Positions 3,957 through 39,449 of a stretch of 64,000 bases of DNA are shown here, in pieces (the stretch's first letter is position 1; each line of letters opens with the position of its first letter). The stretch is from Patescibacteria group bacterium (GTDB lineage Bacteria > Patescibacteriota > Minisyncoccia > Phycocordibacterales > CAIZLB01), in contig JAZKFG010000005.1 in the NCBI GenBank assembly GCA_040386515.1, forward strand, positions 9,313 to 73,312, read 5' to 3'. The notes under the pieces were generated by a model that saw nothing but the letters and a program-made list of their open reading frames with translations, searched no databases and was not told where the DNA came from. Made by a program: the position numbers and the translations under genes.

Positions 3957-6179
3957 TTATTCTGGCGTTGTAGCAGAAGGAGTTTCTACGGTTTGAGTTG
4001 GTGTAGGCTCCTGCACTATTGGTTCTGGGACAATAACAGGTTCTACAGATGTTGAAGTACTCACAATCGGTTCAGACTGACTAGGCTGAACAGGTGAAGG
4101 TGTTTGAATATTTACATTAAACCCTCCCCCATTTTGAGCTGCCATTCGTAGAAGGTTTTTGAATTGATCTTTACTAATACACACTTCATCAGAACATACT
4201 TGTCCTTCTACATTTAGCTTTGAATCTTGTTTAACTGTAAATGTAGTATCGTCCGTAAACCATACAGCAATTTTCTCAACTTTTGCTGCCAATTCCTTCA
4301 CCGCATTCACAAGCGCCGCCAATATCGGACGATCAGCAAGAGTAAGAAACCCTCTCGCATCTTCTCCTACAGCTTCAGGAATATTCTCTTGTATGTTTTG
4401 AGCTGAGAACCCAGCATAGTTATTTACCGTGTCATATCCTGTTTCTGGTTTCCATTTATATACAATAGGGTTAATGCCTAGTATTTTATCTAATCCTGTT
4501 TTAAATTCTCCTTGTATATCTTTTAGTCTTTCATCAGATGATACGGTTACGTTACCAAGTGAGTCTACTACTAAGTTTGCTCCTCCACCTACGAGTGAGG
4601 TGAAGCGTATGGTTCCTGAGGCGGTGAGGTTGGCAGAGGGGGTTGAGGTGCCGATGCCGAGTCTACCATCATGAGTAAGTCTCATTTTTTCTGTTCGAGA
4701 TATTGTTCCTGATGCGATTGTTTCAAAAGACAATTCACCTGGAGCTGAAGTTGATGTCCAAGTTTGAGGAGCATATCCAGTAATTGCAGCTGCATTACGC
4801 ATTGATGTGCCATCATTTCCCCCAAATATTAAACCTGCTAATCTATCACCTGTTGCCATCGCTGCACCATCATTTGCATATAACTGTATAAATGAACCAC
4901 TTGAAGGTCCAGTTGCAGCGCTTGATTCACCAACGAATACTGCTCCAGATGATGTATTCCCTACACCAATTCCATTTGATCCCGCACCAGTAAACACACT
5001 AGTCGATGTTGAAATTTGCCCAATTTGTAATTTATATACAGGAGTTGTTGTTCCAATACCTAGATTACCAAGATGATCAAGCCGCATCCTCTCTGCTGGT
5101 GTTGCATTGTTTGCAGTTGAGAAAACTAAAGCACCTTTGTAAGTATTTATATCAGTAATAATTCCAGACATACGAGCAATATCTGTTCGAGTTGTACCTG
5201 TTCTTCGTGCAGTAAACAATATACCCGAACCTGTATTTACAGCCGCAGTTCCTCTGTTATCGAGTCGGAGAAAATCAGGAGCCGATCCACTAACTGAATC
5301 AGTGATATCGAGCTTGTATTCAGGACCTGTGTTGCCGATACCCACCAGTCCGCCGAACGGCGCCATCTGAATAGATCCCTTATTGGATGACAGATCATTT
5401 CCAGGAGCGATTTCGATAACATTATCATCAGCGCCTGCTGAGCGAATTATTGAGGCATTACCTCCATACATTTGCCCTGCACTTTGTTGACCTATAACCA
5501 ACCCTCTCCCTCCTGAATTTGCCCTTTCCAGAAAAATAAATTTATCTTTCGTACCCGTAATATGAATCCCTTGTGTCTTATTTACACCTAAATCAATAGT
5601 AAGTGCAGTGGTTGAACTCGCGGCAGTTGTTGTTCCAATAGCAACATTTCCAGCAGAATAATATGTAGTTGTTCCATTTGCTTGCCATAGAGATACTGAA
5701 GTCCACGTAGTTCCATTTGATGTATATAGAGTGTTGTCAGTAGTATTAAAATATAGTGATCCAGCAGGACCTACTGTTGGCGCAGAACTGTAAGAAAACG
5801 TTCCAAAAGATTTAAGAGCAGTTGGTGCAGCGTTGAGTGAAGTACGTGGAGATAGATCAGTGCCGTTGATATTTACTTGAACATACAGAGCTTGATCGAA
5901 GTTAACTCCTGTAGTATCTGATTCTGTGAATGAAGTACCAAAGTAACCATTAGCAACAGTTACTGTTTTTACAATTGGAGATCCTGTCGTACTTCCTCCT
6001 GAAAGCGAATCATAAAATGTAAATGTTGCGTTAACACTACTACTTAGTGGAGCACCATTACTAAAAAGTTGCCCCTGAAAACCTAAACTCTTTGAGGGTG
6101 ATGCAGCGAAAATACTTGCACTAGAAATAAGCGCAGTGATGAGAAAAGTGGAGATGAGTAATAAAGTTCTTTTCTGCAT
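3957..6179 (-). CDS. Secreted fibre-like protein, paralog 1 of 3. It has a signal peptide, a conserved N-module, a Gly-rich beta-repeat core, a C-terminal Peptidase S74-like intramolecular-chaperone domain and a Pro/Thr-rich tail.
   Basis: 740 aa. N-terminal signal/TM segment followed by the AASPSKSLGFQGQLFSNGAPLSSSVNATFTFYD module shared with 30384-34598 and 52899-54761. The C-terminus carries SSDERLKDIQGEFKTGLDKILGINPIVYKWKPETGYD...RGFLTLADRPILAALVNAVKELAAKVE, consistent with the SDxRxK autocleavage family. Confidence 0.8.
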   Translation of the reverse strand: MQKRTLLLISTFLITALISSASIFAASPSKSLGFQGQLFSNGAPLSSSVNATFTFYDSLSGGSTTGSPIVKTVTVANGYFGTSFTESDTTGVNFDQALYVQVNINGTDLSPRTSLNAAPTALKSFGTFSYSSAPTVGPAGSLYFNTTDNTLYTSNGTTWTSVSLWQANGTTTYYSAGNVAIGTTTAASSTTALTIDLGVNKTQGIHITGTKDKFIFLERANSGGRGLVIGQQSAGQMYGGNASIIRSAGADDNVIEIAPGNDLSSNKGSIQMAPFGGLVGIGNTGPEYKLDITDSVSGSAPDFLRLDNRGTAAVNTGSGILFTARRTGTTRTDIARMSGIITDINTYKGALVFSTANNATPAERMRLDHLGNLGIGTTTPVYKLQIGQISTSTSVFTGAGSNGIGVGNTSSGAVFVGESSAATGPSSGSFIQLYANDGAAMATGDRLAGLIFGGNDGTSMRNAAAITGYAPQTWTSTSAPGELSFETIASGTISRTEKMRLTHDGRLGIGTSTPSANLTASGTIRFTSLVGGGANLVVDSLGNVTVSSDERLKDIQGEFKTGLDKILGINPIVYKWKPETGYDTVNNYAGFSAQNIQENIPEAVGEDARGFLTLADRPILAALVNAVKELAAKVEKIAVWFTDDTTFTVKQDSKLNVEGQVCSDEVCISKDQFKNLLRMAAQNGGGFNVNIQTPSPVQPSQSEPIVSTSTSVEPVIVPEPIVQEPTPTQTVETPSATTPE

Positions 6180-24190: not shown

Positions 24191-25258
24191 ATGAGTGTTC
24201 TCAGAAAAACACATGAAATAATCGACGATTTGCTTTCGGCAATCGATAGTGCACAGAATGAAATTCTGCTGCAGATTTTTTATATTGATAATGATGAAGT
24301 CTTTTCTCGCTTTGTTGAGAAAATGATTGAAAAGTCTATTGCAGGCATTAGAGTATATTGTTTGGTTGATGCATTAGGTGCAGGACAACTCGCAGTTCGA
24401 GGTGTTGAAAAGCGACTGAAGGATGCGGGTGTGCGTGTTGAATATTTTAACTGGCTTACTCCTTGGAAGCGAGGTAATAAAAAGTTTTGGTATTTTAGAA
24501 ATCATAAAAGATCTCTGATTATAGATAACAAAGTAATGCATCTTGGAGGATGGTGTATTGGTGAGAAAACCCAAGACTGGATTGAGGCACATATTGTCAC
24601 TCGCGACATTGATGCTGTTCAAGCTGGAGCCACTGACTTTTGGAATATGTATAAGTATTCTCACAAAACCCAGCTCAAGTTTTCGCATCAGAAAAAGTTT
24701 TTATATACTTCTAGTTCTAATATTGCGTATACCTATCAGGCTCCTCTTTTGAAATCTCGCTTCATTTACTACACGCATAAAAAGCTTGTTCAAAATACTC
24801 AAAATCGCATTGTACTTATAACTCCATATTTCTCCCCTATTCACGGATTAATTCACGCAGGATATGAGGCTCGAAAAAGAGGCGTGTCTATTGATATTTA
24901 CATACCAGAAAAAACAGATCACCATTTTGTAGATCTTGTTGCCAAAACATATATTCATAAATTATTGAAAGCCGGAGCAAATGTATATCTTTCGAAAACA
25001 ATGATTCATGCAAAAGTGTGTTTGTTTGATAACACTGCATATATTGGAACCATGAACCTTGATACTATTTCTCTTCGATACAATTTTGAAAATGGATTAT
25101 TCACTCGTCAAAAAGAAACTATTACCGAACTCGAGCAGGACTTGATTATCCTTCAAAGTCAGTGTGAGAAAATAGATTTAGTTGAATGGGAAAAAAGAAT
25201 GACGTGGTTTCAAAAGCTTTTAGGAAGAGTTATGAAAGTGTTGAGACCTTTTGTATAA
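24191..25258 (+). CDS. Phospholipase D-family protein (cardiolipin synthase-like)
   Basis: Two HxK(x4)D motifs: NHKRSLIIDNKVMHLGGWCIG and IHAKVCLFDNTAYIGTMNLD. Confidence 0.65.
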   Translation: MSVLRKTHEIIDDLLSAIDSAQNEILLQIFYIDNDEVFSRFVEKMIEKSIAGIRVYCLVDALGAGQLAVRGVEKRLKDAGVRVEYFNWLTPWKRGNKKFWYFRNHKRSLIIDNKVMHLGGWCIGEKTQDWIEAHIVTRDIDAVQAGATDFWNMYKYSHKTQLKFSHQKKFLYTSSSNIAYTYQAPLLKSRFIYYTHKKLVQNTQNRIVLITPYFSPIHGLIHAGYEARKRGVSIDIYIPEKTDHHFVDLVAKTYIHKLLKAGANVYLSKTMIHAKVCLFDNTAYIGTMNLDTISLRYNFENGLFTRQKETITELEQDLIILQSQCEKIDLVEWEKRMTWFQKLLGRVMKVLRPFV

Positions 25259-26462
25259 CCTGAACAATCTTTCTTACATGTTTCCATGTTGTTCCTTGTC
25301 CCAAACTGATTCTAAGACTTGACCCTCCGCAATCTTTCCCGAGTGCGTCTACCACAAAAGACCTAGATTCTTCTTGTGAATTTTGACATGCGGTTACTGC
25401 TGACACTTCTACTCCTGCAACGTCAGCTTGAAATACTGCAAATTCAGAATCAATTCCAGGAATGCAAATATTAATATTATTTACAATTCGTGAATCTCGC
25501 TCAAGCGAACCATTTACAAAAACATGTTCTGGCAAATTGCTGAATATAAATTCTTGCATTGGAGCAATTCTTTTTACTTCGCTTTCTCTTTTTTTGAAAA
25601 CATTTTTCAAAGCTAAAGCAAATCCAGCAATGCTTGGAAGATTTTCTGTGCCTGCGCGCAATTCCATCTCCTGTCCACCACCTTTATATATTGATGAAAT
25701 CTTTGTTCCTCGTTTTACATACAAACATCCAATTCCTCGTGGACCGTATATTTTTCCTCCGTCTAGCGTAAGTAAATCAACTCCGAGTTTGTCAATTGGC
25801 ATGTCAAGATAACATGGTGCCTGACATGCATCAGTATGAAAATATGGATAGGCGCTTTCAGAATTCTTTCTATACCCTCTTACCATTCGAGCAATATCTT
25901 TAAGAGGTTGAATTGTTCCGATTTCATTATTTACAAGCATTATAGAAACGAGAATAATATTTTTCTCTGTTTCAAAAACTTTTTTCAATTCAGACAAGTC
26001 AACAACTCCTTCTGCATCTACAGATACAAAACTTGCAGAAACTTTCCCTTTCTTAACTAAGCTCTCAACAACTTTTTTAACCGCAGGATGTTCTATGACA
26101 GAAGTGACAATATGCGGAATAACAGAATTGGTCTCATACCAAGCCTCTACCACCCCAAGAATTGCCATATTGTTTGACTCTGTTCCGCTTCCTGTAAAGA
26201 AAATCTCATCAGAATGGACACTGTTGGCCGATGTACCTGACAGGAGCATTGAAACCTCTTTTCGGCTACTTTCGAGCATTTTCTTAGCTTGTACTGCCGA
26301 TCCGTACAATGCTCCTGGGTTTTTGTCGTAATTCTTATAGATATTAGACATTAACGATAAAACATTGTCACTTATGGGTGTGAGAGTCGCGTAGTCAGCG
26401 TAAATCTTTTTTGAAGGCCGTTTTGACGGCCGAAATGGGTAAAAAATCCTTGAAAACATTGT
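25230..26462 (-). CDS. Class V aminotransferase-fold cysteine desulfurase-like protein
   Basis: PLP-Lys region LDGGKIYGPRGIGCLYV and an active-site-Cys-like SAVTACQNSQ. The track ORF extends to 26603 and overlaps infB, so the start is set at the internal Met (MFSRIF). Confidence 0.6.
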   Translation of the reverse strand, partial: TMFSRIFYPFRPSKRPSKKIYADYATLTPISDNVLSLMSNIYKNYDKNPGALYGSAVQAKKMLESSRKEVSMLLSGTSANSVHSDEIFFTGSGTESNNMAILGVVEAWYETNSVIPHIVTSVIEHPAVKKVVESLVKKGKVSASFVSVDAEGVVDLSELKKVFETEKNIILVSIMLVNNEIGTIQPLKDIARMVRGYRKNSESAYPYFHTDACQAPCYLDMPIDKLGVDLLTLDGGKIYGPRGIGCLYVKRGTKISSIYKGGGQEMELRAGTENLPSIAGFALALKNVFKKRESEVKRIAPMQEFIFSNLPEHVFVNGSLERDSRIVNNINICIPGIDSEFAVFQADVAGVEVSAVTACQNSQEESRSFVVDALGKDCGGSSLRISLGQGTTWKHVRKIVQVIQKVSTLS

Positions 26463-26475
26463 GTTTTTTCTATAA

Positions 26476-28776
26476 ATGTGTATTATAATGTATACCATGA
26501 CAGTCAATAATAATCCACAGTCAGAAGATGATTCATTCGGAGGAGCCTTCGGTGGTGCTTTTGGTGGAGCGTTCGAAGTTAAGTTCAATAGTGATGGATC
26601 CACGTCTAAAGTAGCAGCAACAGAGAAAGAAGAAGCTCCTGTTAAGAAAACTGCTCGAAAAACAAAAAAAGATGAGGTTGTTATCGTTAAAAAAGAAGTT
26701 CGGACATCTTCGCGAACATTTGCTGCAGCTGATAGAGTTGCTCCTGCCCCAAAACCTAGTCAATCAACATCCGGAGATTCGTGGATGAAGGATTTTCCAT
26801 TTACATATGAAAAAAATAAGCCGGCAGCAGCACCTGAAACAACAGCCCCTGTTGCACAAACTCCAGCACCTCAAGTTGCCCCAGAGCCAGTTCGAGTTAC
26901 TCCAACATACGTTTCTTCTCCTGCCCCAACTCCATTTAAATCTAAAATAATCACACCAGAAGAAAAAAAGAAAAATCTAGAAGCCGCAGCTGCTGCAGCA
27001 CCTATAGCAAAAGCAGCAAGTGATGACCGAGGTACTGCATTTGCAAAAACATTCCTTAAAGGATCAGGTATAAAACATAAACCGCGTCCGACAACATCTG
27101 GACCAAGTACATACAAACCATCCGGACCGTCAAGACCTTACTACGAACCACGAGTACGAAGAACTAAAGTTAAAAACGCTCCGACACTTAAAACTCGAAT
27201 TAGTGGAAAATCAAATCAAAATGTTCTTGAAGTTAAAAAGCATATTGGTGCTGATGTAAAAGCCAAAGCTCCGGTTGTAGTAATCATGGGTCACGTTGAT
27301 CACGGAAAATCAACATTGCTTGATTATATTCGAAGTGCAAATACTGCAGATCGAGAGGTTGGAGGTATTACACAAAAGATGTCTGCATACGAAATAGTTC
27401 ACAATGGCAATCCAATTACTTTTTTGGATACACCAGGACACGAAGCATTTAACTCTATGAGAACACGAGGTGCACGAGCAGCAGATATTGCAGTGCTTGT
27501 TGTATCAGCAGAAGATGGCGTAAAACCTCAGACACTTGATGCGCTTGCCTCTATTCAAGAAGCTGGTGTTCCCTTTTGTATTGGGGCAAGTAAAATAGAC
27601 AGAGAAGGAGCTGATATTGAAAAGACAAAACAATCTCTTGCAGAAAATAGTATTTTCGTTGAAGGATACGGTGGAGATATTTCTATTATTCCTTTTTCAG
27701 GAAAGACAGGAAAAGGAGTTGATGATCTTTTGGATATGATTTTACTTATGGCTGAAGTTGCAGATCTTACAGCTGAGTATGATGTTCCGGCAGAATGTCT
27801 TGTTATCGAATCAGGACGAGATAAAGTTAGAGGAATTCACGCAACACTTATTGTAAAAAACGGAGAGCTTGTTACTGGATCATTTTTAGTATCAGGAGGC
27901 GAGATTTCACCAGTGCGAATTATGGAAAATTATGAAGGAAAAGCAATTAAGAAAGCTATTCCAGGACAGCCTGTACGAATTGTAGGATGGACTGATGCAC
28001 CTCAGGTTGGTGACATGTGTATTATGTGTCGAGACAAAGAGTCAGCAGAAGTTCTTGCAGCAGAACAAAAAGAGTTGCTAGCCCTTGGTGCAGAAATGGA
28101 TGGAACAAATAAGACAAAGCCAAATCCTCAAGTAAACATTCGAGCAATGTATGGTCTTGAAAAAGATGATACATGGACACTTCCCCTTGTACTTAAGGCA
28201 GACAGTGTTGGAACCCTTGATGCAGTAAAGCAAGAGATCGCAAAGATTCAGCTTGATCGAATTATTGTTCGAGTTATTCGAGCAGAGACTGGAGATATTA
28301 ATGAAAATGATATTAAGCTCGCACAAGGCAGTAAGGATTCTATAGTTCTTGGCTACAATACAAAAATTGATGCACAAGCTCGACGTGTTGCCGAAACTCA
28401 GAAAACCACAGTTGAAACATTTGATATTATTTACAAGCTTACAGAATGGGTTACCGAAGAAGCAAAGAAGCGAGCACCTAAAGTTACAAGTGAAGAATCT
28501 CATGGTCAGCTTAAAGTTCTTAAGACATTTAGTATTAATAAGAACAAGCAAGTTATGGGAGGAAAAGTTGAAACTGGAAAACTATCTCTCGGTGATACTG
28601 TTAAAATTCTTCGACGAGACAATGAAATTGGTCAAGGAACAATTGTTGAATTGCAGCAAATGCGAGCTGCAGTTAAAAGCGTTGAGGCTGAAAATGAATG
28701 TGGACTTATGGTTGAATCAAAAATAGAAATTGTAAGTGGAGACGTTCTCTCAGCTGTATCGATTGTAGAAAGATAA
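26476..28776 (+). CDS. infB: Translation initiation factor IF-2
   Basis: 766 aa. A low-complexity N-terminal region is followed by a GTPase domain ([17 protein letters not shown]) and C-terminal IF-2 domains. The exact start is uncertain. Confidence 0.9.
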
Positions 28777-29165: not shown

Positions 29166-29242
29166 GGGCGCAGTGGCGAAGTGGTTTAACGCGGCAGTTT
29201 GCAAAACTGATATTTCGCCGGTTCAAATCCGGCCTGCGCCTC
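29166..29242 (+). tRNA. tRNA-Cys (anticodon GCA)
   Basis: Acceptor GGGCGCA/TGCGCCT, anticodon loop TTGCAAA, T-arm GCCGG-TTCAAAT-CCGGC. Confidence 0.7.
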
Positions 29243-29260
29243 CTGTTGGATAAAATAGTC

Positions 29261-29343
29261 GCCTTGGTGGTGGAATGGTAGACACGAGAGACTTAAAATC
29301 TCTTAGCAGCAATGCTGTGCGGGTTCGAGTCCCGCCCGAGGCA
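29261..29343 (+). tRNA. tRNA-Leu (anticodon TAA), class II long variable arm
   Basis: Acceptor GCCTTGG/CCGAGGC, anticodon arm AGAGA-CTTAAAA-TCTCT, T-arm GCGGG-TTCGAGT-CCCGC. Confidence 0.8.
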
Positions 29344-29394
29344 CATAACAAGAAAGAGTATCCGAAAGGATACTCTTTCCATATTAGCCGAGGG

Positions 29395-29501
29395 AAAAGT
29401 CTGTAAGACTTTTAGGGATTCGAAAAGCTTTACGATGTTTGTGAGGACCTCTGGTCCGAATCAAACCGTAAAGGTGTACTGAAGCTGTAAGCTTCGAGTC
29501 C
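29395..29501 (+). ncRNA. Candidate structured RNA element in the tRNA-Cys/tRNA-Leu trailer (copy A; homologous to 59344-59456)
   Basis: Two hairpins with covarying stems, a closing helix GGATTC/GAGTCC, and conserved blocks CGAAAAGCTTT, TTGTGAG and AAAGGTGTACTGA shared with the tRNA-Lys trailer. Confidence 0.35.
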
Positions 29502-29517
29502 ATGTTATACTCTTCAT

Positions 29518-29907
29518 ATGAAAAAAGTATTTAAGATACTAATATACATATTCCTTATTACCTTATTGTGGGTTATATTTCTAAATACTTTTGGCATTAG
29601 ATTATTCGCAATACATGATTCTTTATTAGAAAGCAAGATCATGACTCTTTTAGATACAGAACATATCAATCTTCCTGAGGGAGAATATAATACTAGGAAA
29701 ACCTACATTCATAAATTTAATGATGATGATTATATTATCTATCAATATTATACTGGTATTCCAGATGACTCTTCATCATCTCTCAAAAAAACAATTATTC
29801 TCGGAGTTAATAATGATGGGAGCTTTTATATAAAATCTGAAAAGAGTAAATCTAACTGCTCTCGAGGTAAAGTTTGGTTTGGTCCTCATGCAGGTTGGTG
29901 TAAATAA
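29518..29907 (+). CDS. Hypothetical membrane-anchored protein
   Basis: N-terminal TM helix (ILIYIFLITLLWVIFL). Confidence 0.4.
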   Translation: MKKVFKILIYIFLITLLWVIFLNTFGIRLFAIHDSLLESKIMTLLDTEHINLPEGEYNTRKTYIHKFNDDDYIIYQYYTGIPDDSSSSLKKTIILGVNNDGSFYIKSEKSKSNCSRGKVWFGPHAGWCK

Positions 29908-29910
29908 TAT

Positions 29911-30381
29911 ATGAACAAATTTAAATACTCTATATACAAACTCACCCACCCTTTCTTCCGTCTCTATTGGAGAATCTTTAAACCTAAAACTTTTGGAACC
30001 AAAGCTTTACTTATATATAAAGACAGTATTCTTCTTACTAAGAATATTAATAGTTCACACTGGGGACTTCCTGGAGGAAAAATAGATAAAGGAGAAACTC
30101 CAGAACAATGTATTTGCAGAGAATTGCAAGAAGAGTTAACTTTATCTTGTTTAGTTCCAGAATTTAAACTTGGAACATTTACATCCAATAATGAAGGTAA
30201 AAGAGATACTGTATATGTATTTGCATTTCTCCTCCCTTCTCAAGATTTTACAAAGCAATGGGAATTACATGATGCAGAATGGTTTAGTATTACAGATTTA
30301 CCAAAAGACACAAGTCCAGCAACACTGAGGAGAATTAATGAGTTTAAAAACAATGAAAGAAATATAGTGAGTATTTGGTAG
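29911..30381 (+). CDS. NUDIX hydrolase
   Basis: Nudix box GGKIDKGETPEQCICRELQEELTL. Confidence 0.8.
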   Translation: MNKFKYSIYKLTHPFFRLYWRIFKPKTFGTKALLIYKDSILLTKNINSSHWGLPGGKIDKGETPEQCICRELQEELTLSCLVPEFKLGTFTSNNEGKRDTVYVFAFLLPSQDFTKQWELHDAEWFSITDLPKDTSPATLRRINEFKNNERNIVSIW

Positions 30382-30383
30382 AG

Positions 30384-33300
30384 TTACTCCCCATCAACAA
30401 CAGGAGCTGGAGTTTCAACCGGTGCAACAGGTTCAGGTGCAGGAGGAGTTACTTCTTCAGTGACTTCAGGTTCAGGAGTTGCACTTGATGAATCTGAAGG
30501 TGGAGGTACAACAGGTACTGTTGGTGCTGATGATGAATGTCCTCCTCCACCATTATTACCCTTTGCATTTAACATCATTTGCTTAAACTCTTGCTTTGTC
30601 ATACACACTTCCTCAACACAGAATTGTCCGTCGAGCTTGATTGAACTATTTTCAGGCACTGCCAGAGTTTTACCATCATCTTTAAACCATGCTGCAATCT
30701 GTTCAACTTTTGTCGCTAATTCTTTTACTGCATTTACAAGTGAAGCAAGAATAGGTCTGTCTGCAAGAGTTAAGAATCCTCGTGAATCAGTCGATACCGC
30801 TTCAGGAATTGCAGACTGAACATTCTGAGCACTAAATCCGGCATAACTATGTTCAGTGTCATATCCAGTTTCTATTTTCCATTTATACAAAATCGGATTA
30901 ATTTGCTTAATCTTATCAAGTCCAGAAATAAACATTCCTTGAATATCTTTTAGTCGTTCGTCAGATGATACGGTTACATTTCCAAGAGAATCAGTGATTA
31001 AGTTGGCACCCCCTGAACCAAGATTAATAAATCGAATTGTTCCAGATGCGGTCAATGTTGCTGATGGAGTACTTGTTCCAATACCCACATTTCCATTTGA
31101 AGTTATTCGCATTCGCTCAACATTATTCGAACCAAAGATAACATCAGTTGCATCAAGTGTTGCCATCATAATATTTCGTGAAGTTCCTGCCGTGTTAAAT
31201 ATTGCATCAACAGTATTTCTTGGAATTGATCCAAGGAAGTTTCCGGTGTAATTCACTCCTGCCTGGCTAAATGCAAAATAGTGATCAGATGTATCTTTGA
31301 TGAGGAATCTAAAGTCAGCTCCATTTCCTGTGCTTGTATTACCCATCTGAACCCCTGATGCACCGTTAAAGTTATCTGAAATATTTGCTGCAAACGTACT
31401 ATTACCTCCTATTGAAAGCGGAACAAAGGCAGCACTATTTGCGTTTACAGATAATTTGGCAAGCGGTGTTGTAGTTCCAATTCCAACATTTCCATTTGCC
31501 TGAACATTAAACAATGACGCATTAGATGCGCTCCAAATATCTATAATTGGGGCAGTTTGTGAAGTTGTTGCTTGTGCTGCAAATGTAGTACTGCCGATAT
31601 TAGTAGAAAATACATGCAACTTTGCTAAAGGTGATGTTGTTCCTATTCCGAAGTTTCCATTTGCATCCAGTGTCATTTTTGGAACAGTTCCTCCACCAGT
31701 TGTATCATTACTATAAAAAGTCAGAGCGTACGCAGATGACATTCTTAAGCCACGTGTGTTTCTCAAATCATAATCCATGTTAATACTTCCGTATTTTGTT
31801 CCTGTGTTTGTATTGCTAAATATCCAATCAAGACCGTAGCCCTGACCGGTCCCTCCTCCTCCAAGTGTAATACGTGTACTTCCTGTTTGATTACCTCCAA
31901 GATGTAATGCACTCATTGCAGAAGTGGTTCCAGTACTTATCCAACCATTTGAGGAATTAACAAACAATGCCGGCGCTGACGATGTTCCAACATTGAAACT
32001 ACCAGCAACATCAAGCTTTGCAGACGGTGACGAAGTTCCTATCCCAACATTTCCAGATGTTCCATCAATAACAAGCAACGGTGCTACTGTGTTTGTTATA
32101 AGAAACTTTCCAGCCCCTCCACTATTTGCAGAGCCGGTTGAAAGTATGTCAAAAGTTTTACCTCCAGTGTCTGTATTGACAAATTTCCAAACTGTACCAC
32201 CTGCTGCAGCAGAAGCCATTGTAAATAATGATCCAGGTGTTGTAGTTCCTATTCCGACATTTCCAGCAGATGTAATTCGAAGCCGTTCAGTTATGTTACC
32301 TGCATTTGGTCGAGTACTAAGAGCGATATATCCTCCATAATTTCCAGAAATTGAATCATCTCGTCCAGATCGAATCGCTGCATTAATTGCAACTGCCCCA
32401 GAGGTATTGTATTTTGCCCCGAATGAAAGCGTACCTCCATAATCTACAGTCGGTGACCCATCATTTGCAATAATGGCAACTTGACCCGAGCTAGTTCCAT
32501 TAACTAAAGTTTTATTCGGCGAAGCAAATACCGCTGTAAATGCTCGGTCAGAAGCACTACTTCCATCAAGTGTACCTGATTGAACACTCAATAAGCTGTT
32601 TGGAGAAGTTGTTCCAATTCCGACATTTCCAGCGTTAGTTATTTGAAATACAGACGTTCCATTTTTTGCAATTGAAACAAAATCAGCATTACCAGTGTTA
32701 TCAATTTTCAATGTTGGTGCAGCTGAGAAACCACTTTGTAGATGCATCAATGCAATACCAGGTTCATTTAATCGAACAAAAGATGTACCTGAAACATATA
32801 CATCTAATGCTGCTGCAGGCGTTGTTGTTCCAATTCCAACACTTCCAGCTAAGTAACCAACATTAGAACCATTAGTAATCCACTGACTACTCACCTTACT
32901 TGCCCACTCAGTTGTTGACGCACTAAGAGGAATTACATATCCTGAAGTGAGTGATAATATTCCAGTAGTAGATGAGTATGATAGTCCTGTTGCATCTGTT
33001 GAAAATGAATTCCGCACACTTGATGTACTAAATATTCCAGTGAGCTGCGAACCATCTCCAATAAATGCTGTGGCGTTCACATTTCCACTAAAGTAACCAT
33101 TACCAATTACTGAAAGTTTTTGCACTGGAGTTGTTGTGCCCATACCAACATTTCCATTATCCAAAATACTAAACAACGCAGTATTTGCAGAGTTGGTTGT
33201 CTGGAAGTTTATTCCCGTTGTTGTTCCAATCCCCTTTATTGCAAGACGTGAACTAGGAGTTGTCGTGCCTCCGATTCCGACATTGCCATTTAACAAAATA

Positions 33301-34598
33301 ATCATTTTTGCACTATCAGACGGACCGATAACGGTCGAGTTTGCAATTGCATTAGTTAATGATGTTCCAAAGGCAGAAGCATTGTTAGCAGTGACTGAAT
33401 TGGAAAATCCAAATGCCATACTATTTGATGAAGATGCGGCTATTACGTTATTGTATCCAAATGCATTACTCAAAGAACCTAAAGCGCTGTTATTATTTCC
33501 AAACGCCGACGTACGAAATCCATTTGCCGTATTGAGTGCACCCACTGCAGATGCATAATCCCCACCTGTTGCGAGGTTATTATTTCCGAAAGCACTTGCA
33601 TATTGTCCGACAAGACCAGCTGAGGTAGAACTACCTGCGACGTTTCCGGCACCGAATGCAGATGTCAAATGGCCGGCTGCCTTATTCTGCAATCCCATAG
33701 CACTATTTCCATACATCCAAGACAGAGAACCTGTTGCCACATTTGCCATACCTACTGAGATAGAATAATTACCTGCAATATTCCCATTTCCAATAGCGCC
33801 ACCTCCACCAGGAAATAGAGGGTCTACCATGTTATCAAGTCCGAATGTATATGAGTTTGAGGCTGCGGCAACCTGAGTTGGCAATGAGTGCGAAGACTGG
33901 ACATCTATTGACCCTGCACCTCGAGCATTACCACTTATGTCTCCCATTACGACAGCATTGTTTGAATTTATAACCTTAATATCACCCTGAACAGTTAGCG
34001 CTGAACCTGGCGTCGTTGTTCCAATTCCAACATTCCCTGTATTAAAATACGTATCACTGTCATTCATCAACCATGGTGATGTAGAAGCTGAACTAGCCGT
34101 AACATTCCAAGATGTTCCATCAGATACAAACAATGTATTTGAGACATTGTTAAAATACAAAGATCCAGCTGGACCTACTGTTGGCGCTGATGCATATGAA
34201 AATGCTCCAAAAGATTTTAATGCGGTTGGCGCAGCATTAAGTGCAGTTCGTGGAGATAAGTCAGTACCATTAATATTTACCTGAACATATAATGCTTGAT
34301 CAAAGTTAACACCAGTTGTGTCCGCTTCAGTAAAAGATGTTCCAAAATATCCGTTAGCAACAGTTATTGTTTTTGCAATTGGAGAACCTGTTACTACTCC
34401 TCCTGAGAGTGAATCGTAAAATGTAAATGTTGCGTTTACTGATGATGATACTGGCGCATTGTTACTGAAAAGTTGCCCTTGGAAACCGAGTGCTTTTGAT
34501 GGACTTGCAGCATATATATTTACAGCGAAAAAAAGCGTAGAAATTGCAGAAATGAGAATGGTAAATAAAGTTCTTCTCTTCATGATGCATACACGCAA
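30384..34598 (-). CDS. Giant secreted fibre-like protein (1404 aa), paralog 2 of 3. It has the same N- and C-terminal modules as paralogs 1 and 3, around an expanded Gly-rich repeat core.
   Basis: Signal peptide; the shared N-module AASPSKALGFQGQLFSNNAPVSSSVNATFTFYD...; at least 9 copies of the (N/A/S)GNVGIGTTTPxxxLxV repeat; and the C-terminal SSDERLKDIQGMFISGLDKIKQINPILYKWKIETGYD...RGFLTLADRPILASLVNAVKELATKVE with a Pro-rich tail. Confidence 0.85.
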   Translation of the reverse strand: MRVCIMKRRTLFTILISAISTLFFAVNIYAASPSKALGFQGQLFSNNAPVSSSVNATFTFYDSLSGGVVTGSPIAKTITVANGYFGTSFTEADTTGVNFDQALYVQVNINGTDLSPRTALNAAPTALKSFGAFSYASAPTVGPAGSLYFNNVSNTLFVSDGTSWNVTASSASTSPWLMNDSDTYFNTGNVGIGTTTPGSALTVQGDIKVINSNNAVVMGDISGNARGAGSIDVQSSHSLPTQVAAASNSYTFGLDNMVDPLFPGGGGAIGNGNIAGNYSISVGMANVATGSLSWMYGNSAMGLQNKAAGHLTSAFGAGNVAGSSTSAGLVGQYASAFGNNNLATGGDYASAVGALNTANGFRTSAFGNNNSALGSLSNAFGYNNVIAASSSNSMAFGFSNSVTANNASAFGTSLTNAIANSTVIGPSDSAKMIILLNGNVGIGGTTTPSSRLAIKGIGTTTGINFQTTNSANTALFSILDNGNVGMGTTTPVQKLSVIGNGYFSGNVNATAFIGDGSQLTGIFSTSSVRNSFSTDATGLSYSSTTGILSLTSGYVIPLSASTTEWASKVSSQWITNGSNVGYLAGSVGIGTTTPAAALDVYVSGTSFVRLNEPGIALMHLQSGFSAAPTLKIDNTGNADFVSIAKNGTSVFQITNAGNVGIGTTSPNSLLSVQSGTLDGSSASDRAFTAVFASPNKTLVNGTSSGQVAIIANDGSPTVDYGGTLSFGAKYNTSGAVAINAAIRSGRDDSISGNYGGYIALSTRPNAGNITERLRITSAGNVGIGTTTPGSLFTMASAAAGGTVWKFVNTDTGGKTFDILSTGSANSGGAGKFLITNTVAPLLVIDGTSGNVGIGTSSPSAKLDVAGSFNVGTSSAPALFVNSSNGWISTGTTSAMSALHLGGNQTGSTRITLGGGGTGQGYGLDWIFSNTNTGTKYGSINMDYDLRNTRGLRMSSAYALTFYSNDTTGGGTVPKMTLDANGNFGIGTTSPLAKLHVFSTNIGSTTFAAQATTSQTAPIIDIWSASNASLFNVQANGNVGIGTTTPLAKLSVNANSAAFVPLSIGGNSTFAANISDNFNGASGVQMGNTSTGNGADFRFLIKDTSDHYFAFSQAGVNYTGNFLGSIPRNTVDAIFNTAGTSRNIMMATLDATDVIFGSNNVERMRITSNGNVGIGTSTPSATLTASGTIRFINLGSGGANLITDSLGNVTVSSDERLKDIQGMFISGLDKIKQINPILYKWKIETGYDTEHSYAGFSAQNVQSAIPEAVSTDSRGFLTLADRPILASLVNAVKELATKVEQIAAWFKDDGKTLAVPENSSIKLDGQFCVEEVCMTKQEFKQMMLNAKGNNGGGGHSSSAPTVPVVPPPSDSSSATPEPEVTEEVTPPAPEPVAPVETPAPVVDGE

Positions 34599-34695: not shown

Positions 34696-35322
34696 CTAAT
34701 AATTTGACTGAAAAGTGGCCGGATATGTCACACTAACTTCCCCATTTGCAGATGTTGCAACTGCTCTAAAATAATATGTTCGATTTGACTCAAGCGGAAG
34801 CGAAACAACATTGTTTGCTGTAAGCAAACTTGTGCCCGTCATCACCCCTGTACCGCTCAAAGTAACGGTCATTGGAGTCACAAATACATTTTCTGTTCCC
34901 GTGATTGGAGAAGTACTGTAGAATACGCTTACTCGACTAGGAATATTTGTATTTACATTAAATGTAGCTGTATTTCCATTCAATGTTACTCCAACAGGAG
35001 TTGTAAACATTGGCGCTGAACCTAATGTAGTCCCGCCCATTTGTGAATTTATAACCGACATGGTCTGAGGACCAACTCTTCCTACTTGGCTAATGCCATT
35101 TTTAGCCTGAAATCTAGTTACCGCCGCTTTTGTAAGTGATCCAAAGTACCCTGTTACAAGTCCTGATGGATACACGCTGCTATCCGTTGCGAGAAATCTC
35201 TGCAAATCAGAGACATCTGTTCCTTGCGAACCTAACTCTAATTGTCTTGTCAGAGCTGCAAAAGTTAATGCAGGTGCCAAGGCAAACGCTAAACAAATTA
35301 ATACTATGTTGAATTTTTTCAT
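34696..35322 (-). CDS. Secreted protein with a peptidoglycan-binding (PG_binding_1-like) domain
   Basis: Signal peptide plus the GTDVSDLQRFLATDSSVYPSGLVTGYFGSLTKAAVTRFQAKNGI motif typical of PGRP-type PG-binding repeats. The C-terminal half is Thr/Val-rich and beta-rich. Confidence 0.5.
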   Translation of the reverse strand: MKKFNIVLICLAFALAPALTFAALTRQLELGSQGTDVSDLQRFLATDSSVYPSGLVTGYFGSLTKAAVTRFQAKNGISQVGRVGPQTMSVINSQMGGTTLGSAPMFTTPVGVTLNGNTATFNVNTNIPSRVSVFYSTSPITGTENVFVTPMTVTLSGTGVMTGTSLLTANNVVSLPLESNRTYYFRAVATSANGEVSVTYPATFQSNY

Positions 35323-35511: not shown

Positions 35512-36540
35512 CTATGAAATCGTAATGTGTTTAATCTTCCGTATTACCTTATGATATATATCTTTTACAGCCATCAATTCGTGTTCATGTGTAAGCTTTT
35601 TGGGGAGCGCTGGTATTTTGCTTCGAAGCTTGGCACTTGTCGGACTTTCATGCTGAATAACATACATGAGTGCTTCAGTTAAAAACTTGGCCGACTGCAT
35701 AGGAACAAGCGGTGCCGCAACAAAGGGCTCAAATTCATATGCATCTCCTACTCGCGTCGCAATACACGGAACATGCATATACATTGCGGTCAATAACGTA
35801 TATAAATCACCTGAACTCGTTCGAGGGGAAATAAATATATCGAAGGCAGGAATATATTGTTCAGGATTTTCCACCTGATCAACAATAAAACAAATCCCCT
35901 GAACATGTGAATTTTCAATTTGCTTTTGCAAAGCAGAATCAACATGACCATCATGCAAAATAACAAAAATAGTATTAGTTAAGTTTTTATATTTATCGGC
36001 GAGATAGGCAGCATCAATCAAATGCTCGACCCCATTCCCTTCATCCTGTCGTATAACAGTTCCAACTATTCGAATATTTTTTGTAAATGCAATGCCAAGC
36101 TTTTTATATATAAAACTTCGGGCTGTGTCTTTTTTTAATATCTCAGTTGTAGGAATCAAATCAATGCCGCGATAAATAAGCGAACGCTTTGATTTTCCAG
36201 CAAGGTGATATTGATCAATATGATCCATATCGTATTTTGAAGTACAAATTGTATGACCATACAAATGTCGTGCACACAGTTGTTTTAAAATATACCAATA
36301 GGTAAACATTATCGGCGCATATAATGTGCGGACAACTTTGATTCTATGCAAAAAAGCAATTAGTGCATATATGCCAAAAGTTTCCTTACCTGTTGCGCGC
36401 ATATGAATAACATCAGGAGTTGTTTCTTTGAGCACATTCCAAAAACGCTTATAGTCAGAAAACCCTTTCTCTACAAGGTAAATATCCTGCTCTGGTATGT
36501 GAGGAGGAGTATATGAATGTATAAAGTGTAATACTCTCAC
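35512..36540 (-). CDS. GT4-family (GT-B fold) glycosyltransferase
   Basis: 342 aa. N-terminal MRVLHFIHSY and a C-terminal donor-binding half typical of group 1 glycosyltransferases. Confidence 0.55.
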   Translation of the reverse strand: MRVLHFIHSYTPPHIPEQDIYLVEKGFSDYKRFWNVLKETTPDVIHMRATGKETFGIYALIAFLHRIKVVRTLYAPIMFTYWYILKQLCARHLYGHTICTSKYDMDHIDQYHLAGKSKRSLIYRGIDLIPTTEILKKDTARSFIYKKLGIAFTKNIRIVGTVIRQDEGNGVEHLIDAAYLADKYKNLTNTIFVILHDGHVDSALQKQIENSHVQGICFIVDQVENPEQYIPAFDIFISPRTSSGDLYTLLTAMYMHVPCIATRVGDAYEFEPFVAAPLVPMQSAKFLTEALMYVIQHESPTSAKLRSKIPALPKKLTHEHELMAVKDIYHKVIRKIKHITIS

Positions 36541-36578: not shown

Positions 36579-39449
36579 TTACTTAATCATGCTTAATGGA
36601 GACTTCACTTCTTCTTTTTTCTCTTCCTTTTTATATTTTTCCATAATACCTTCTTCAACCATATCTCGATCTTGACCGTATGTTAGATATGAAAGCTCTT
36701 TAAGATTTTCTACAATATTTGGATTGCCTTTTTCTTGCGGCATCATTTGTATGTTAAATGGCTTTGTCGGCTTTCCATATGAGAGCATTTTCACATAGGC
36801 ATTAAAGTTATCAATATTCATAATATCGTTCGCCATAAAAGTGGGCTCAAATTGCTTTTCAAGATATTCTGCATCCTCAGCACCAACTCGATAGACCACC
36901 ATATTTCCAACGTTACCAAACACAGATGCCTTGATTTTATCATCAAGCTGAGCAATGAACTGATGAGCCATTGTAAGCGACAATTTATACTTTCGTGCCT
37001 CTGACAAAATAGTTGAAATAGACGGTGTGGTTACGTTTTGGAACTCGTCGATATACAAATAAAACGGCGGCATATCTTTTCCGAATGAATCCACACGCGA
37101 AAGTGCGGCCATCAAAATCTTTCCTACAATAATCAAACCGATAAGGTTAGAGTTAATTTCACCCAACTTTCCTTTTGCCAAGTTCACCAGCAAAATCTTT
37201 TTCTTATCCATGATTTCTCGAAAATTAAAACTAGAATGTTCCTGAGCGATAATCGGTCGCATAATATCATTGGCCAAAAATACATCAAACTTTGATGTGA
37301 TATATGGCACCATGTTTGCAAGGCCAGATTCCCCGCTTGTCTTTTCTGCAATTTCAACCCAAAATTGCCGCACGATCGGATTTTTACATCGTGAGATTTT
37401 CATGTCTCGGAAGCTTTTAACGGCCATTACTCGAGAAACATCAAGGAGTGTACACCCGCTCGATGGATCTTCGATTACAAGCATTGTGGCATTTCTAAAA
37501 TACTGCTCAAACATCGGCCCCATACTTTCAGGCACGCCACCGTATAACTTTTGGAAAATACTAAAAAGCTCGTTTACCACGAATGTTTTTTGCTCAGGAT
37601 GCGATGGATCATATTCGAGCATGTTCAATGCCATTGGACGTTCTGTATAACTTGGATCAAAATAAATAACATCATCAAATCTATCCTTTGGGATTTTTGA
37701 AAGAATATCCTGAATGTCAGATCCGTGCGGGTCGATAAAACACACTCCTTCTCCATTTTTAATATCTTGAAGAATGAGATTTTTAAGAATACTTGATTTA
37801 CCCACACCAGTTTGTCCGATCACATACATGTGTCGAAGTCTGTCTTCTGGCGCCATGTAAACTGGCTGTTCAACATTTCTATGAAGATTCTTACCGAGAA
37901 GCACACCTGTGCGAGGAAGGTCGAGTGGGGCCGGAGCAGTTCCAGCTTTTGACTGCTTGAGCTGCGGCGCATTTGTAGCTCCAGAAAGCATTGGAAAATG
38001 CATCACACTCGAAAGCTCTTTTATAGAAAGCGGAATAATTTCTTTTTGATTAAAAATACGAAATGAAAAATCATGCAAAAAACTTTGTAGTCTAGCTTTC
38101 TCTGGTCGCTCCCACGAAAATCCATTTCCAAGCGCATTATTAAACTGATTAAAACTTGATTCAAGATCAGAAAGTATTTGCTCGGCACGAATCGTATTCG
38201 CAGCTGATGCAACAAGACGAATATTTGTTTCAACAATTGGCGTAGTTATTTTCTTGGTGATTTGCTCAAGGGCTATCTGGTCAACAACTTTTTCTTTATC
38301 TTTTTTATTTTTATCATCTCCATTGACTGCGTGCTCAACCAATTCTTTCCCAAGCTCTCCTGCAGCTTTAGTAAAATGTCCCCACATGGTGTGGCGAATA
38401 TCGATAGACTTTTTCAACGAATCACCCTTACGCACTTTATCAAGAGACTCTTTAAAAAGCTTTGTATAATAATCTCCGACCTGACTAAATACAACCTGCA
38501 CAGATGCCCCTTCTCCCTCTCTTTGAATCTTAGAGAGCGTATTGAGTGTTACCTGCAAAGGATCATGATCAAATTCATCATACATTTTTATAGGAAAAAT
38601 TTCATTCTTAGTTGAAGTTGCATATGAGCCAACGCTTGATCCATCAGAGTTAAAGATATTATAATCGTCATGTTTTATTTCTATTTTTGCACCTGGAAAT
38701 ACAGACAAAATATGCTTTTCAAAAAGATCCGCTTTTGCATCTGGAATAGAAACATAGAAAATAAATTCTTCACTTGCATCAGCCACTGCAAGCTCAATAG
38801 TCATATGATTTTTACTATCTCCCTGCTTTTTACCAGCATCAGAAATAGACATCATACCTGCATAAAATTGTTCCATTGCAGAAAGAAGTTCTTTCAATGG
38901 CCGTTGTCCTGCATCTTTTTTATCAGCTTTAAAATCAGGCAAAGACACTTCATACAATGTATGCGTGATTGATTTTTGTATTGGCTCGCCTTCTTTTAAA
39001 TCCTTAATTGTTAAACCCGCTTTCAAATATTCAACAAGAAATCTATGGAAATCATCTTCGAGATGAGGGTTTTTGGTTTGATGAATGGCAGACAAAGCAT
39101 TATGAATACCGTATTTTTCCATTAAGGTAAAATACTCTTCCATGTTTTTATCATGTGCTTCAGGCGAAAGCTTAAGAACTATTTCTGTACCTCGAGTCTC
39201 ATGCTCTTGAGGTGTAGCCTTATACGATTCATGCAAAAGATCACGGCCAGTATTGGCATGATATTCTTTTATTTCCTCGCGGATAATCTGATCCTGTTCT
39301 TTTTGTCCGCCAATAGTTGCTTCATGTGCTTTTACTTGCGCACGTAAATAATCCAACTCTTCTTCTAAGGTTGTAAAAGGTTTTTTTTCAGGCTCTGCAG
39401 AGAGATTAGGTTGGCCTGCAATATTTTCTATGTGTTCTCTATCGATCAT
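36579..39449 (-). CDS. P-loop ATPase of the FtsK/HerA/VirB4/TraG superfamily (AAA_10/DUF87-like) with a ~500-aa uncharacterised N-terminal domain
   Basis: Walker A GQTGVGKSS is followed by CFIDPHGSDI, which matches the DPxGE motif of DUF87/VirB4/VirD4 ATPases. Walker B is YLYIDEFQ, and a downstream RKYKLSLTMAHQ matches the RK...Q motif of conjugative ATPases. No TM helices. Confidence 0.55.
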   Translation of the reverse strand: MIDREHIENIAGQPNLSAEPEKKPFTTLEEELDYLRAQVKAHEATIGGQKEQDQIIREEIKEYHANTGRDLLHESYKATPQEHETRGTEIVLKLSPEAHDKNMEEYFTLMEKYGIHNALSAIHQTKNPHLEDDFHRFLVEYLKAGLTIKDLKEGEPIQKSITHTLYEVSLPDFKADKKDAGQRPLKELLSAMEQFYAGMMSISDAGKKQGDSKNHMTIELAVADASEEFIFYVSIPDAKADLFEKHILSVFPGAKIEIKHDDYNIFNSDGSSVGSYATSTKNEIFPIKMYDEFDHDPLQVTLNTLSKIQREGEGASVQVVFSQVGDYYTKLFKESLDKVRKGDSLKKSIDIRHTMWGHFTKAAGELGKELVEHAVNGDDKNKKDKEKVVDQIALEQITKKITTPIVETNIRLVASAANTIRAEQILSDLESSFNQFNNALGNGFSWERPEKARLQSFLHDFSFRIFNQKEIIPLSIKELSSVMHFPMLSGATNAPQLKQSKAGTAPAPLDLPRTGVLLGKNLHRNVEQPVYMAPEDRLRHMYVIGQTGVGKSSILKNLILQDIKNGEGVCFIDPHGSDIQDILSKIPKDRFDDVIYFDPSYTERPMALNMLEYDPSHPEQKTFVVNELFSIFQKLYGGVPESMGPMFEQYFRNATMLVIEDPSSGCTLLDVSRVMAVKSFRDMKISRCKNPIVRQFWVEIAEKTSGESGLANMVPYITSKFDVFLANDIMRPIIAQEHSSFNFREIMDKKKILLVNLAKGKLGEINSNLIGLIIVGKILMAALSRVDSFGKDMPPFYLYIDEFQNVTTPSISTILSEARKYKLSLTMAHQFIAQLDDKIKASVFGNVGNMVVYRVGAEDAEYLEKQFEPTFMANDIMNIDNFNAYVKMLSYGKPTKPFNIQMMPQEKGNPNIVENLKELSYLTYGQDRDMVEEGIMEKYKKEEKKEEVKSPLSMIK

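Follow-up and report, generated by a model that had tools for sequence, protein, structure and literature searches.

Genomic islands and P4-like prophages are reportedly bounded by attL/attR duplications at the T-loop sublocation of transfer RNA (tRNA) and transfer-messenger RNA (tmRNA) genes, and the attP(+) site of CTXphi is said to fold into a forked hairpin that is used by XerCD. Patescibacteria (Candidate Phyla Radiation, CPR) have very small genomes, which are considered to contain little mobile DNA and few regulatory RNAs. In a stretch of 64,000 nt from a Patescibacteria group bacterium (GenBank assembly GCA_040386515.1, contig JAZKFG010000005.1, positions 9,313 to 73,312 of the forward strand), which is referred to below as the window and whose own numbering is used for it, we analyzed two copies of a folded element, copy A (29387-29501) behind a tRNA-Leu gene and copy B (59338-59464) behind a tRNA-Lys gene. 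The two are members of a large, previously undescribed, Patescibacteria-wide family of folded cassettes located behind tRNA-type genes. The element shares single features with each kind of described system with which it was compared and fails at least one defining feature of each, and its closest formal analogue would be the folded attP of CTXphi or the attC site of integrons.

Copies A and B have one common fold, which consists of a hairpin (H1) and a three-way junction made up of helix P1, junction strand J12, hairpin P2, junction strand J23 and hairpin P3, and each copy folded alone gave this same architecture (z = -3.4 and -4.7 versus shuffled sequences). A covariance model built from the sequences of other genomes returned just two matches when run on the 64 kb, at 29412-29504 (82.6 bits) and 59367-59458 (79.9 bits). 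The two look-alike elements of the original prediction were thus confirmed by sequence, by their shared fold and by model matches at these two sites alone, and the parts that it had recognized, namely H1, the closing helix (P1), two conserved blocks (CGAAAAGCUUU and AAAGGUGUACUGA, found in both copies) and a second hairpin, H2 (here P3), were all present. Two points of its anatomy required revision: a stretch of ~45 nt that had been taken as variable is the distal part of hairpin P2 and contains a conserved tandem G.A motif (UGAG/CGAA), and the element, which had been drawn from H1 onward, really starts 5' of H1 at a strand designated b', with copy B reaching to 59464. The base of P2 is formed by the CUUU.../...AAAG part of the two conserved blocks. 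The P3 stems of the two copies are compensatory (GAAGCU/AGCUUC in A versus GACCCU/AGGGUC in B), and within P3 the GA of CUGA pairs with the UC of UCGA, as shown by the variants CUGU..ACGA (L123) and CUGG..CCGA (L119; loci are given by L numbers), in which the changes fall at positions which the search pattern had fixed. Since these changes are compensatory, P3 abuts P1 with zero unpaired bases between them.

The size of the family was determined by a scan with the exact pattern GTGTACTGANNNTGTAANNNTCGA over one genome per species, and all locus counts are lower bounds. At least 118 loci in about 106 assemblies carry the exact pattern. Among the matches listed, all but one were titled Patescibacteria or unclassified bacteria; the lineages named in the titles include Parcubacteria/Paceibacterota, Nomura-, Kaiser-, Zambryski- and Taylorbacteria, Minisyncoccia and metagenome-assembled genomes (MAGs) labelled "Saccharibacteria", and many other records are titled merely "uncultured bacterium" or "bacterium". 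The exception (L106, JBEBJM010000043.1) is a 5.4-kb contig labelled Nitrospira sp. that carries a Patescibacteria-type tRNA cluster in addition to the element, and it was probably mis-binned. The covariance model added ~30 copies in the same loci that fall outside the exact pattern, with variants CUGUACUGA, CUGCACUGA and CUGAACUGA of J23 and GAAAAGG of J12. The same exact pattern had 0 matches in IMG/VR, and a viral origin was set aside on that basis. A search of the whole window against Rfam 15 at gathering thresholds identified five tRNAs and nothing else, and both copies at E values up to 10 gave only chance-level matches, far under gathering scores, in a collection that includes the hammerhead, twister, twister-sister, pistol, hatchet and HDV-like ribozymes, riboswitches, YrlA, tmRNA, int-alpA and the IS605/HEARO motifs. 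Mapping a hammerhead by hand also failed, as the junction strands match CUGANGA / GAA / H17 neither in order nor in length. Nothing on the element was found in the literature, including by a search with the literal sequence GUGUACUGA.

Evidence that the fold is under constraint came from 34 copies placed in a plain MAFFT alignment, from which RNAalifold recovered the three-way junction. In this alignment, 94.9% of the cells were paired versus 76.4% after shuffling (0 of 500 shuffles were as high), 11 of the 18 pairs had changes on both sides, and the covariation score was 0.455, compared with 0.122 for shuffled alignments and at most 0.097 when partners were slid by 1-3 columns. The homologues and the covariation for which the original prediction had called were both found, with pairs far above the shuffles, and its central claim of a conserved, structured element that is linked to tRNA genes and has genuine compensatory changes is borne out. 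Several copies can occur in one genome; in L003, three of the four tRNAs within one 8-kb stretch are followed by the element. The mean identity of P2 was 0.65 within genomes versus 0.58-0.59 between genomes, with a few near-identical pairs, and homogenization of the core within genomes, which we also considered, is only weakly supported by these values.

A feature overlooked by the original prediction is that the 3' strand of P3 and P1 copies the 3' end of the upstream tRNA or tmRNA gene. A tRNA on the same strand ends 12-360 nt (mostly 83-155 nt) upstream of J23 in 86 of 121 pattern hits, and these tRNAs cover at least 15 amino-acid specificities. P3 is followed by a copy of the 3' end of the element's own tRNA, which runs from T-loop position 54/55 through the 3' strand of the T-stem to the 3' strand of the acceptor stem, is commonly identical at 20-26 of 26 positions, and extends to the discriminator and a few trailer bases; at four loci (L036, L088, L046, L071) it runs on through the trailer and the terminator. 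Given that the bases after P3 are a tRNA 3'-end copy, the "UCGA" of the element is the T-loop UUCGA. The complements of this copy lie on the other side of the core. The strand a' is complementary to the 3' strand of the T-stem and to T-loop nucleotides 54-60, and b' to the acceptor 3' strand, the discriminator and trailer bases; between b' and a' lies H1, flanked by AG on its 5' side and CGU on its 3' side. The whole arrangement is therefore gene (...a b) - x L x' (the trailer or terminator hairpin) - b' - AG - H1 - CGU - a' - core - a b, in which the core is J12-P2-J23-P3 and in which b'a', as a single strand, pairs with the downstream a b (helices P0 and P1) and closes the three-way junction. 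Where the tRNA has G.U pairs, b' is Watson-Crick (L090, L004, L002). No similarity between H1 and the tRNA body was detected in either orientation. A tandem duplication of a whole tRNA, the body of which was later replaced, was rejected on the grounds that b' is the Watson-Crick complement of the acceptor 3' strand, that it does not copy the 5' strand and that H1 is unlike the tRNA body.

Some copies had appeared to be "orphans" with no tRNA identified upstream by ARAGORN. In L084 (2957-3535) the element follows a tmRNA gene (2957-3367), and its arms derive from the tmRNA 3' end, ...CCCCCAUCUCCAC. Two others, L096 (2539-2777) and L038 (6333-6647), have group I introns just upstream and represent intron-containing tRNAs that ARAGORN misses. 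Group I introns have been described in the anticodon loops of Patescibacteria tRNAs (PMC13011429), which accounts for some of the copies without an ARAGORN tRNA. Group I introns are also present in L011 and L044, kilobases away from their elements, and L038, which is from a Patescibacteria MAG, has in addition a c-di-GMP-II riboswitch at 3723-3806 on the minus strand (58.9 bits, above the gathering threshold). In L100, the 150 nt that follow tRNA-Pro(UGG) contain an H1-like hairpin with a CUGGGAG loop and, after it, a 30-nt duplicate of the whole T-arm and acceptor 3' strand; there is no core, and this locus may be an "empty frame".

The frame and the core have different histories, and cores have been exchanged between loci. 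In L088 there are two units that share a ~95-nt block with 100% identity (T-loop, a, b, terminator, b', H1 and a'), and their cores are different. In L068, L025, L064, L046, L078 and L087 a single tRNA is followed by two or three modules whose core types differ, each module being bounded by a tRNA-end copy. A second core type in the same frame is ~130 nt long, contains GGGGUCG and ends in GUGACCG; it shares J12 and a P2-like hairpin with the first type and has no P3. This type was found in L016 (in the 130 nt that follow tRNA-Val(GAC)), L064 (as second module), L046, L068, L025, L060, L030 and L120, often coming after a type-1 module within one array, and Rfam had no match at the loci that carry it. 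Conversely, L013 (tRNA-Gln) and L069 (Glu-type arms), which are from one genome, have cores that are ~96% identical over ~100 nt and differ in their T-stem arms, b' and H1 stems.

The locus of copy A could be followed among relatives. The order Aminotran_5 / infB / rbfA / tRNA-Cys / tRNA-Leu / element is kept in L005, L119 and L121-L123 (79-100% RbfA identity; L005 was included by locus similarity and carries no RbfA figure), the element is absent in L124 (70% RbfA identity), and L120 has the other core type and a P3 remnant at the orthologous site. Among the orthologous copies J12, J23 and the P3 loop are invariant while the flanks are unalignable. H1 of the locus type is kept, and P2 occurs in two subtypes, that of window copy A (L005, L122, L123) and that of window copy B (L119, L121), the distribution of which is not congruent with RbfA similarity; the copy B subtype is found too in L019 and L020. 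The acceptor copy b is cut at different points in these relatives, having been lost in copy A, L119 and L123, and P1, the core and H1 are kept. In the window, the truncated copy of the tRNA-Leu T-loop and T-stem, UUCGAGUCC, is all that copy A retains, with the break at 29501|29502, and its b' is imperfect in the lineage of the window, the 3' partner being gone. Copy B has kept a full although decayed frame (GUCCG...CGGAUGCA), of which 59447-59464 is GUCGAUCC-GA-CGGAUGCA, a decayed copy of the tRNA-Lys 3' end. The coordinates of both copies and of their surroundings are collected in Table 1.

Table 1. Positions in the window of the parts of copies A and B, of the associated tRNA genes and of the genes to the right of copy A.
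Feature	Position	Strand	Remarks
tRNA-Cys	29167-29243	+	ARAGORN, Rfam
tRNA-Leu(UAA)	29261-29344	+	ARAGORN; Rfam tRNA, 59.5 bits
tRNA-Leu 3' segment from T-loop, UUCGAGUCCCGCCCGAGGCA	29324-29343		Sequence framing element A
Post-tRNA-Leu hairpin, AAAGAGUAUCC-GAAA-GGAUACUCUUU	29353-29378	+	Terminator-like, bidirectional; called as terminator on minus strand only
Copy A b', GCCGAGG	29387-29393	+	Where the complement of the tRNA acceptor 3' strand would sit
Copy A H1, AAAAGUC-UGUAA-GACUUUU	29395-29413	+	Stem covaries among orthologues
Copy A P1 5' strand (a'), GGGAUUC	29415-29421	+	Complement of T-loop/T-stem 3' nucleotides; partner 29496-29501
Copy A J12, GAAAAG	29422-29427	+	Conserved junction strand; family consensus GAARAS
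Copy A P2, long hairpin	29428-29473	+	Base CUUUACG/CGUAAAG; internal tandem G.A (UGAG/CGAA); apex GGACC-UCU-GGUCC
Copy A J23, GUGUACU	29474-29480	+	Conserved junction strand
Copy A P3, GAAGCU-GUA-AGCUUC	29481-29495	+	UGUAA pentaloop reading; final UC T-loop-derived
Copy A P1 3' strand, GAGUCC	29496-29501	+	With 29493-29495 makes UUCGAGUCC
Islet, unknown 129-aa protein	within 29502-34598
Islet, NUDIX hydrolase	29911-30381
Islet, 1404-aa repeat protein	30384-34598	-	C-terminal Peptidase_S74 "chaperone of endosialidase" domain
PG_binding_1	34696-35322		Conserved right flank
GT4 glycosyltransferase	35512-36540		Conserved right flank
tRNA-Lys(UUU)	59222-59295	+	ARAGORN, Rfam; 3' segment UUCGAUUCCUACCGGACGCA frames element B
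tRNA-Lys terminator-like hairpin, then CUUAUUUGU	59301-59330	+	Called on plus strand; upstream of element B
Copy B b', GUCCG	59338-59342	+	Followed by AG, then H1
Copy B H1, CAAGCCAA-CUGC-UUGGCUUG	59345-59364	+	Sequence, folding
Copy B P1 5' strand, UAGGAAUC, and J12, GAAAAG	59369-59382	+	UAGGAAUC is the complement of tRNA-Lys UCGAUUCCUA
Copy B P2	59383-59427	+	Base CUUUGCC/GGCAAAG
Copy B J23, GUGUACU, and P3, GACCCU-GUA-AGGGUC	59428-59449	+	Folding, alignment
Copy B P1 3' strand, GAUCC, and P0 3' strand, CGGAUGCA	59450-59464	+	Folding, tRNA comparison

The genes that neighbor the element are diverse. No recurrent family was present among the 189 nearest downstream genes (the largest cluster had 4 members), ~40% of which are on the other strand, and the tyrosine-recombinase motif was found in 0 of 823 open reading frames (ORFs) of at least 150 aa in the loci, by a crude motif test that did not screen for serine recombinases. 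On the right side of element A, gene content differs in every relative up to the conserved flank formed by PG_binding_1 and the GT4 glycosyltransferase, and in the window a lineage-specific islet of ~5 kb starts exactly at the point where the tRNA-Leu copy is truncated. A further tRNA 3'-end copy bounding an island was not found in the window. Adjoining the conserved flank of this variable region is a gene for a 956-aa protein with type IV secretion system (T4SS) coupling-protein (VirD4/TraG/TrwB-like) domains (36579-39449, minus strand). At four other loci (L042, L050, L065, L106) the tRNA and the element are kilobases apart, separated by unrelated genes, and this cargo is heterogeneous (a CopA/CsoR islet, hydrolases, membrane proteins). 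In L065 (oriented 440-3960), behind tRNA-Asn, an insert of 3.2 kb with hydrolase-like and unknown genes separates H1 from a' and is flanked by a ~45-bp direct repeat of the T-run, b', H1 and CGU. Upstream of copy A, the 5' ends of the longest ORFs of the Aminotran_5-like gene (25230-26603, minus strand) and of infB (26476-28776, plus strand) overlap by ~130 nt, and the true starts of both are probably further in; the N-terminus of IF-2, the product of infB, is long and of low complexity. Downstream of copy A, an extended -10-like box, TGTTATACT, is situated 6 nt before the ATG at 29518 (29503-29518), which suggests a leaderless or near-leaderless mRNA for that gene. The same near-leaderless picture is seen for the ABC-transporter gene beyond copy B, where a promoter-like TTGTCA-17-TATAGT (59526-59554) precedes the ATG at 59563 by 9 nt.

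Comparison with described systems places the element near several of them. Like the tRNA-targeting integrative elements, it is associated with a direct repeat of the gene's 3' end that runs from the T-loop to or just past the 3' end and leaves the gene intact, it also targets tmRNA, and it forms tandem arrays at one gene with variable adjoining gene content. In contrast to those elements, there are usually ~100-130 bp between the repeats and no encoded integrase, the target is present in an inverted copy as well, the core forms a conserved three-way junction, and a single family occurs at 15 or more tRNA specificities. The attC and CTXphi attP(+) sites have inverted arms ~70-130 nt apart that fold to a hairpin whose stem reproduces the double-stranded target, in a conserved, strand-specific structure; here the arms b'a' and a b reproduce the duplex tRNA 3' end, in a strand that could be DNA or RNA, and the order predicted after integration (target copy, payload, inverted arm, spacer and target copy) is the order observed here. 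The described sites are recombined by IntI or XerCD, with ORFs or a phage genome as payload, whereas here the payload is mostly absent (most modules have no ORF), the spacer sequence is strongly conserved (in attC structure alone is conserved), and the arms differ for every tRNA.

Resemblances were also found to three other kinds of sequence. REP/REPIN, BOX, Correia and MITE-like repeats are also ~100-150 nt long, protein-less, multi-copy and intergenic, lie beside terminators and have near-perfect stems; BOX is likewise modular in build, and the function of REP, BOX and Correia repeats is debated in the same terms of RNA versus DNA. Unlike REP and MITE sequences, the element is tied strictly to tRNA-type 3' ends, its inverted arms copy the local tRNA end in place of family-wide terminal repeats, 20-60 bp of tRNA end stand where a small target duplication would be, and no partner transposase is among the genes beside ~120 copies. 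Retron msr-msd RNAs are defined by flanking inverted repeats (a1/a2), a branching G after the 5' repeat and an adjacent reverse transcriptase (RT) gene; the element has inverted repeats and a conserved AG after b', and its loci have no RT or conserved neighboring gene. In tRNA-like RNAs (mascRNA, YrlA, viral tRNA-like structures) the closing helices use acceptor and T-stem sequence in a tRNA transcription context, as they do here, whereas in the element the T-loop nucleotides are paired (in P1 and P3) so that there is no elbow, pairing in P0 continues past the discriminator into the trailer, the element can do without the acceptor copy, as seen from the losses described above, and there is no match to the Rfam tRNA clan.

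We tentatively favor, with somewhat less than even confidence, the reading that the element represents a non-autonomous cassette for insertion or recombination, or a descendant of one, which uses the segment from the T-loop to the 3' end of tRNA-type genes and acts as a folded single strand. The docking site would be this segment of tRNAs, intron-containing tRNAs and tmRNA, and insertion would leave the gene intact and displace a copy of its 3' end, as with tRNA-targeting integrative elements, while a locus-resident frame (b'-H1-a' ... a-b) would carry an exchangeable core. The folded single strand would be the cis-acting form, in which the displaced copy pairs with its complement and presents the junction to a factor encoded elsewhere; the strand itself could be DNA that is exposed in replication or transfer, or read-through RNA. 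Our best guess for the tRNA-matched arms is that they would arise by gene conversion from the adjacent gene together with hairpin-templated correction. Insertions at tRNA genes are recognized by a direct copy of the gene's 3' end that starts in the T-loop, and such a repeat beside an intact gene is present in the 86 cases described above as well as at the tmRNA gene of L084. As such, the secondary suggestion of the original prediction, a recombination or attachment site flanking tRNA genes, has gained strong support.

An extension of the cassette reading, which we regard as rather unlikely, is that the frames are programmable docking sites of a previously unknown cassette system that is guide-framed at the T-loop. 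The complement of the gene's T-loop-to-3'-end segment would here be a nucleic-acid guide that pairs with the target copy, and the three-way-junction core would be positioned for cleavage and joining at T-loop position 53/54. Catalysis could come from the core, as a structure similar to a ribozyme or DNAzyme, or from an enzyme that is not linked to it, and several core types (small structured RNAs or DNAs) would be inserted, swapped and arrayed much like repeats and spacers, with the tRNA gene as the "leader".

It is important to note that a number of observations weigh against the insertion cassette. No recombinase, transposase, RT or recurrent gene was found beside ~120 copies, no free, circular or "empty site" form was seen, and we know of no mechanism that yields both an inverted and a direct copy of a target of ~20-45 nt. 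The element has stayed behind tRNA-Leu across 79-100% RbfA identity, and a retained locus with invariant junction nucleotides amid unalignable flanks fits selection on every copy, that is, a host function. Ordinary gene conversion between the conserved blocks, and not transposition, could have moved P2 from one locus to another. The orientation of the element is also constant, always on the sense strand of the tRNA (an inversion switch between the inverted arms was rejected on the same ground), and in 89 of 116 copies this sense strand has a more stable fold than the complementary one (mean -3.8 kcal/mol, p = 2.6e-12), with GCGAAGC loops in a ratio of 15:1 in favor of the sense strand. In addition, the core has RNA-like features in its A-rich three-way junction with purine-rich strands, its tandem G.A motif and its UGUAA pentaloop.

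Many of these observations would be accounted for by the alternative that the element is a host-functional non-coding RNA (ncRNA), which we consider possible though doubtful. Such an RNA would be transcribed with the tRNA or tmRNA, by read-through or for want of a terminator, and would fold into H1 and the three-way junction, with P0/P1 as a stabilizing or processing clamp and a junction that binds a protein or ligand or is catalytic (e.g., in self-cleavage or 3'-trailer processing). The strong covariation, the invariance of the unpaired nucleotides of J12, J23 and the P3 loop, the constant use of the more stable sense strand, and the retention of the locus over genus-level divergence, in which b decays while P1, the core and H1 stay, all speak for this alternative. 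Copies inside one genome are, moreover, often as divergent as copies between genomes, and each copy thus seems to be maintained separately. The transcription signals point in both directions. In ~38% of the copies (e.g., L010, L029, L037, L024) there is no terminator between the tRNA and the element, and these must therefore be co-transcribed; conversely, a terminator-like hairpin with T-run is present upstream of 45 of 73 copies (62%), only 17 of 73 (23%) are followed by one, and no promoter-like site was found before A or B on either strand. Copy B has the tRNA-Lys terminator upstream and the promoter-like site of the following gene downstream, and in the arrays the terminator is repeated in each unit, such that several terminators would have to be read through.

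The composition of the helices also bears on the ncRNA alternative. Isolated G.T/T.G versus A.C/C.A mismatches in helices numbered 21:23 in the elements and 41:5 in the tRNAs of the same loci, a control that is too high, since its G.U pairs are conserved and not independent of one another, which weakens the case for the cassette reading. With the alignment fitted to the model, G.U versus A.C was 47:29 among 1825 Watson-Crick pairs. The lack of a G.U excess is suggestive only and would point away from a conventional RNA gene. An argument from GC skew as to the replication strand was confounded by gene orientation. Furthermore, pairing in P0 includes the discriminator and the trailer, and no part of the T-loop is left unpaired, so the element does not imitate the mature end of a tRNA as a substrate of RNase P, RNase Z or CCA addition, and no ribozyme or riboswitch of Rfam matched even at E values up to 10. 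Finally, the ncRNA alternative accounts neither for the terminators and the arrays nor for the fact that the arms copy the neighboring gene, at times with its trailer and terminator.

It is quite improbable that the element is a passive, functionless scar, produced by repeated integration and excision of tRNA-targeting islands or phages or by replication template-switching at tRNA terminator palindromes. The classic mark of an att site is a direct repeat of the tRNA 3' end that begins in the T-loop, the genes beside the element vary among relatives, the segment a b x L x' b' a' forms a long palindrome centered on the terminator, and the helices are nearly pure Watson-Crick, all of which a scar could explain; however, it could not readily explain a ~70-nt core with an invariant junction and covarying stems that is shared by >100 species and occurs at 15 or more types of tRNA, the insert usually measures just ~100-130 bp, and no integrase was found nearby by the tyrosine-recombinase motif test. 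The idea, raised in the original prediction, that each copy is a cis-regulatory leader (riboswitch or attenuator) of its downstream gene was rejected as highly improbable: copy A does end 16-17 nt before the ATG at 29518, and a three-way junction with conserved junction nucleotides resembles an aptamer, but the downstream genes have no family in common and are often on the opposite strand, those of the orthologous copy differ in every relative, and the -10-like box TGTTATACT and the promoter-like site at 59526-59554 lie between copies A and B, respectively, and the start codons of their genes. A recent segmental duplication of one tRNA flank, which the original prediction had named as a possible refutation and which would fit two similar copies 30 kb apart in one genome, has a negligible chance and was likewise rejected, as the arms of each copy match its own tRNA (Leu versus Lys), P2 is only ~62% alike, and both loci have counterparts in other genomes.

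For the annotation of these genomes, partial tRNA copies are parts of structured modules and not simply prophage scars. One conserved, structured, protein-less type of element occurs across >100 species and at 15 or more kinds of tRNA in addition to tmRNA. If the cassette reading is true, it would represent a new use of the tRNA T-loop-to-3'-end segment as a docking site and may explain hot spots of gene turnover beside CPR tRNA genes, and if the element is an RNA, it would be a widespread CPR ncRNA family that is absent from Rfam. On either reading, the covariance model, exact boundaries, arrays and core types provide testable objects for an uncultivated phylum.

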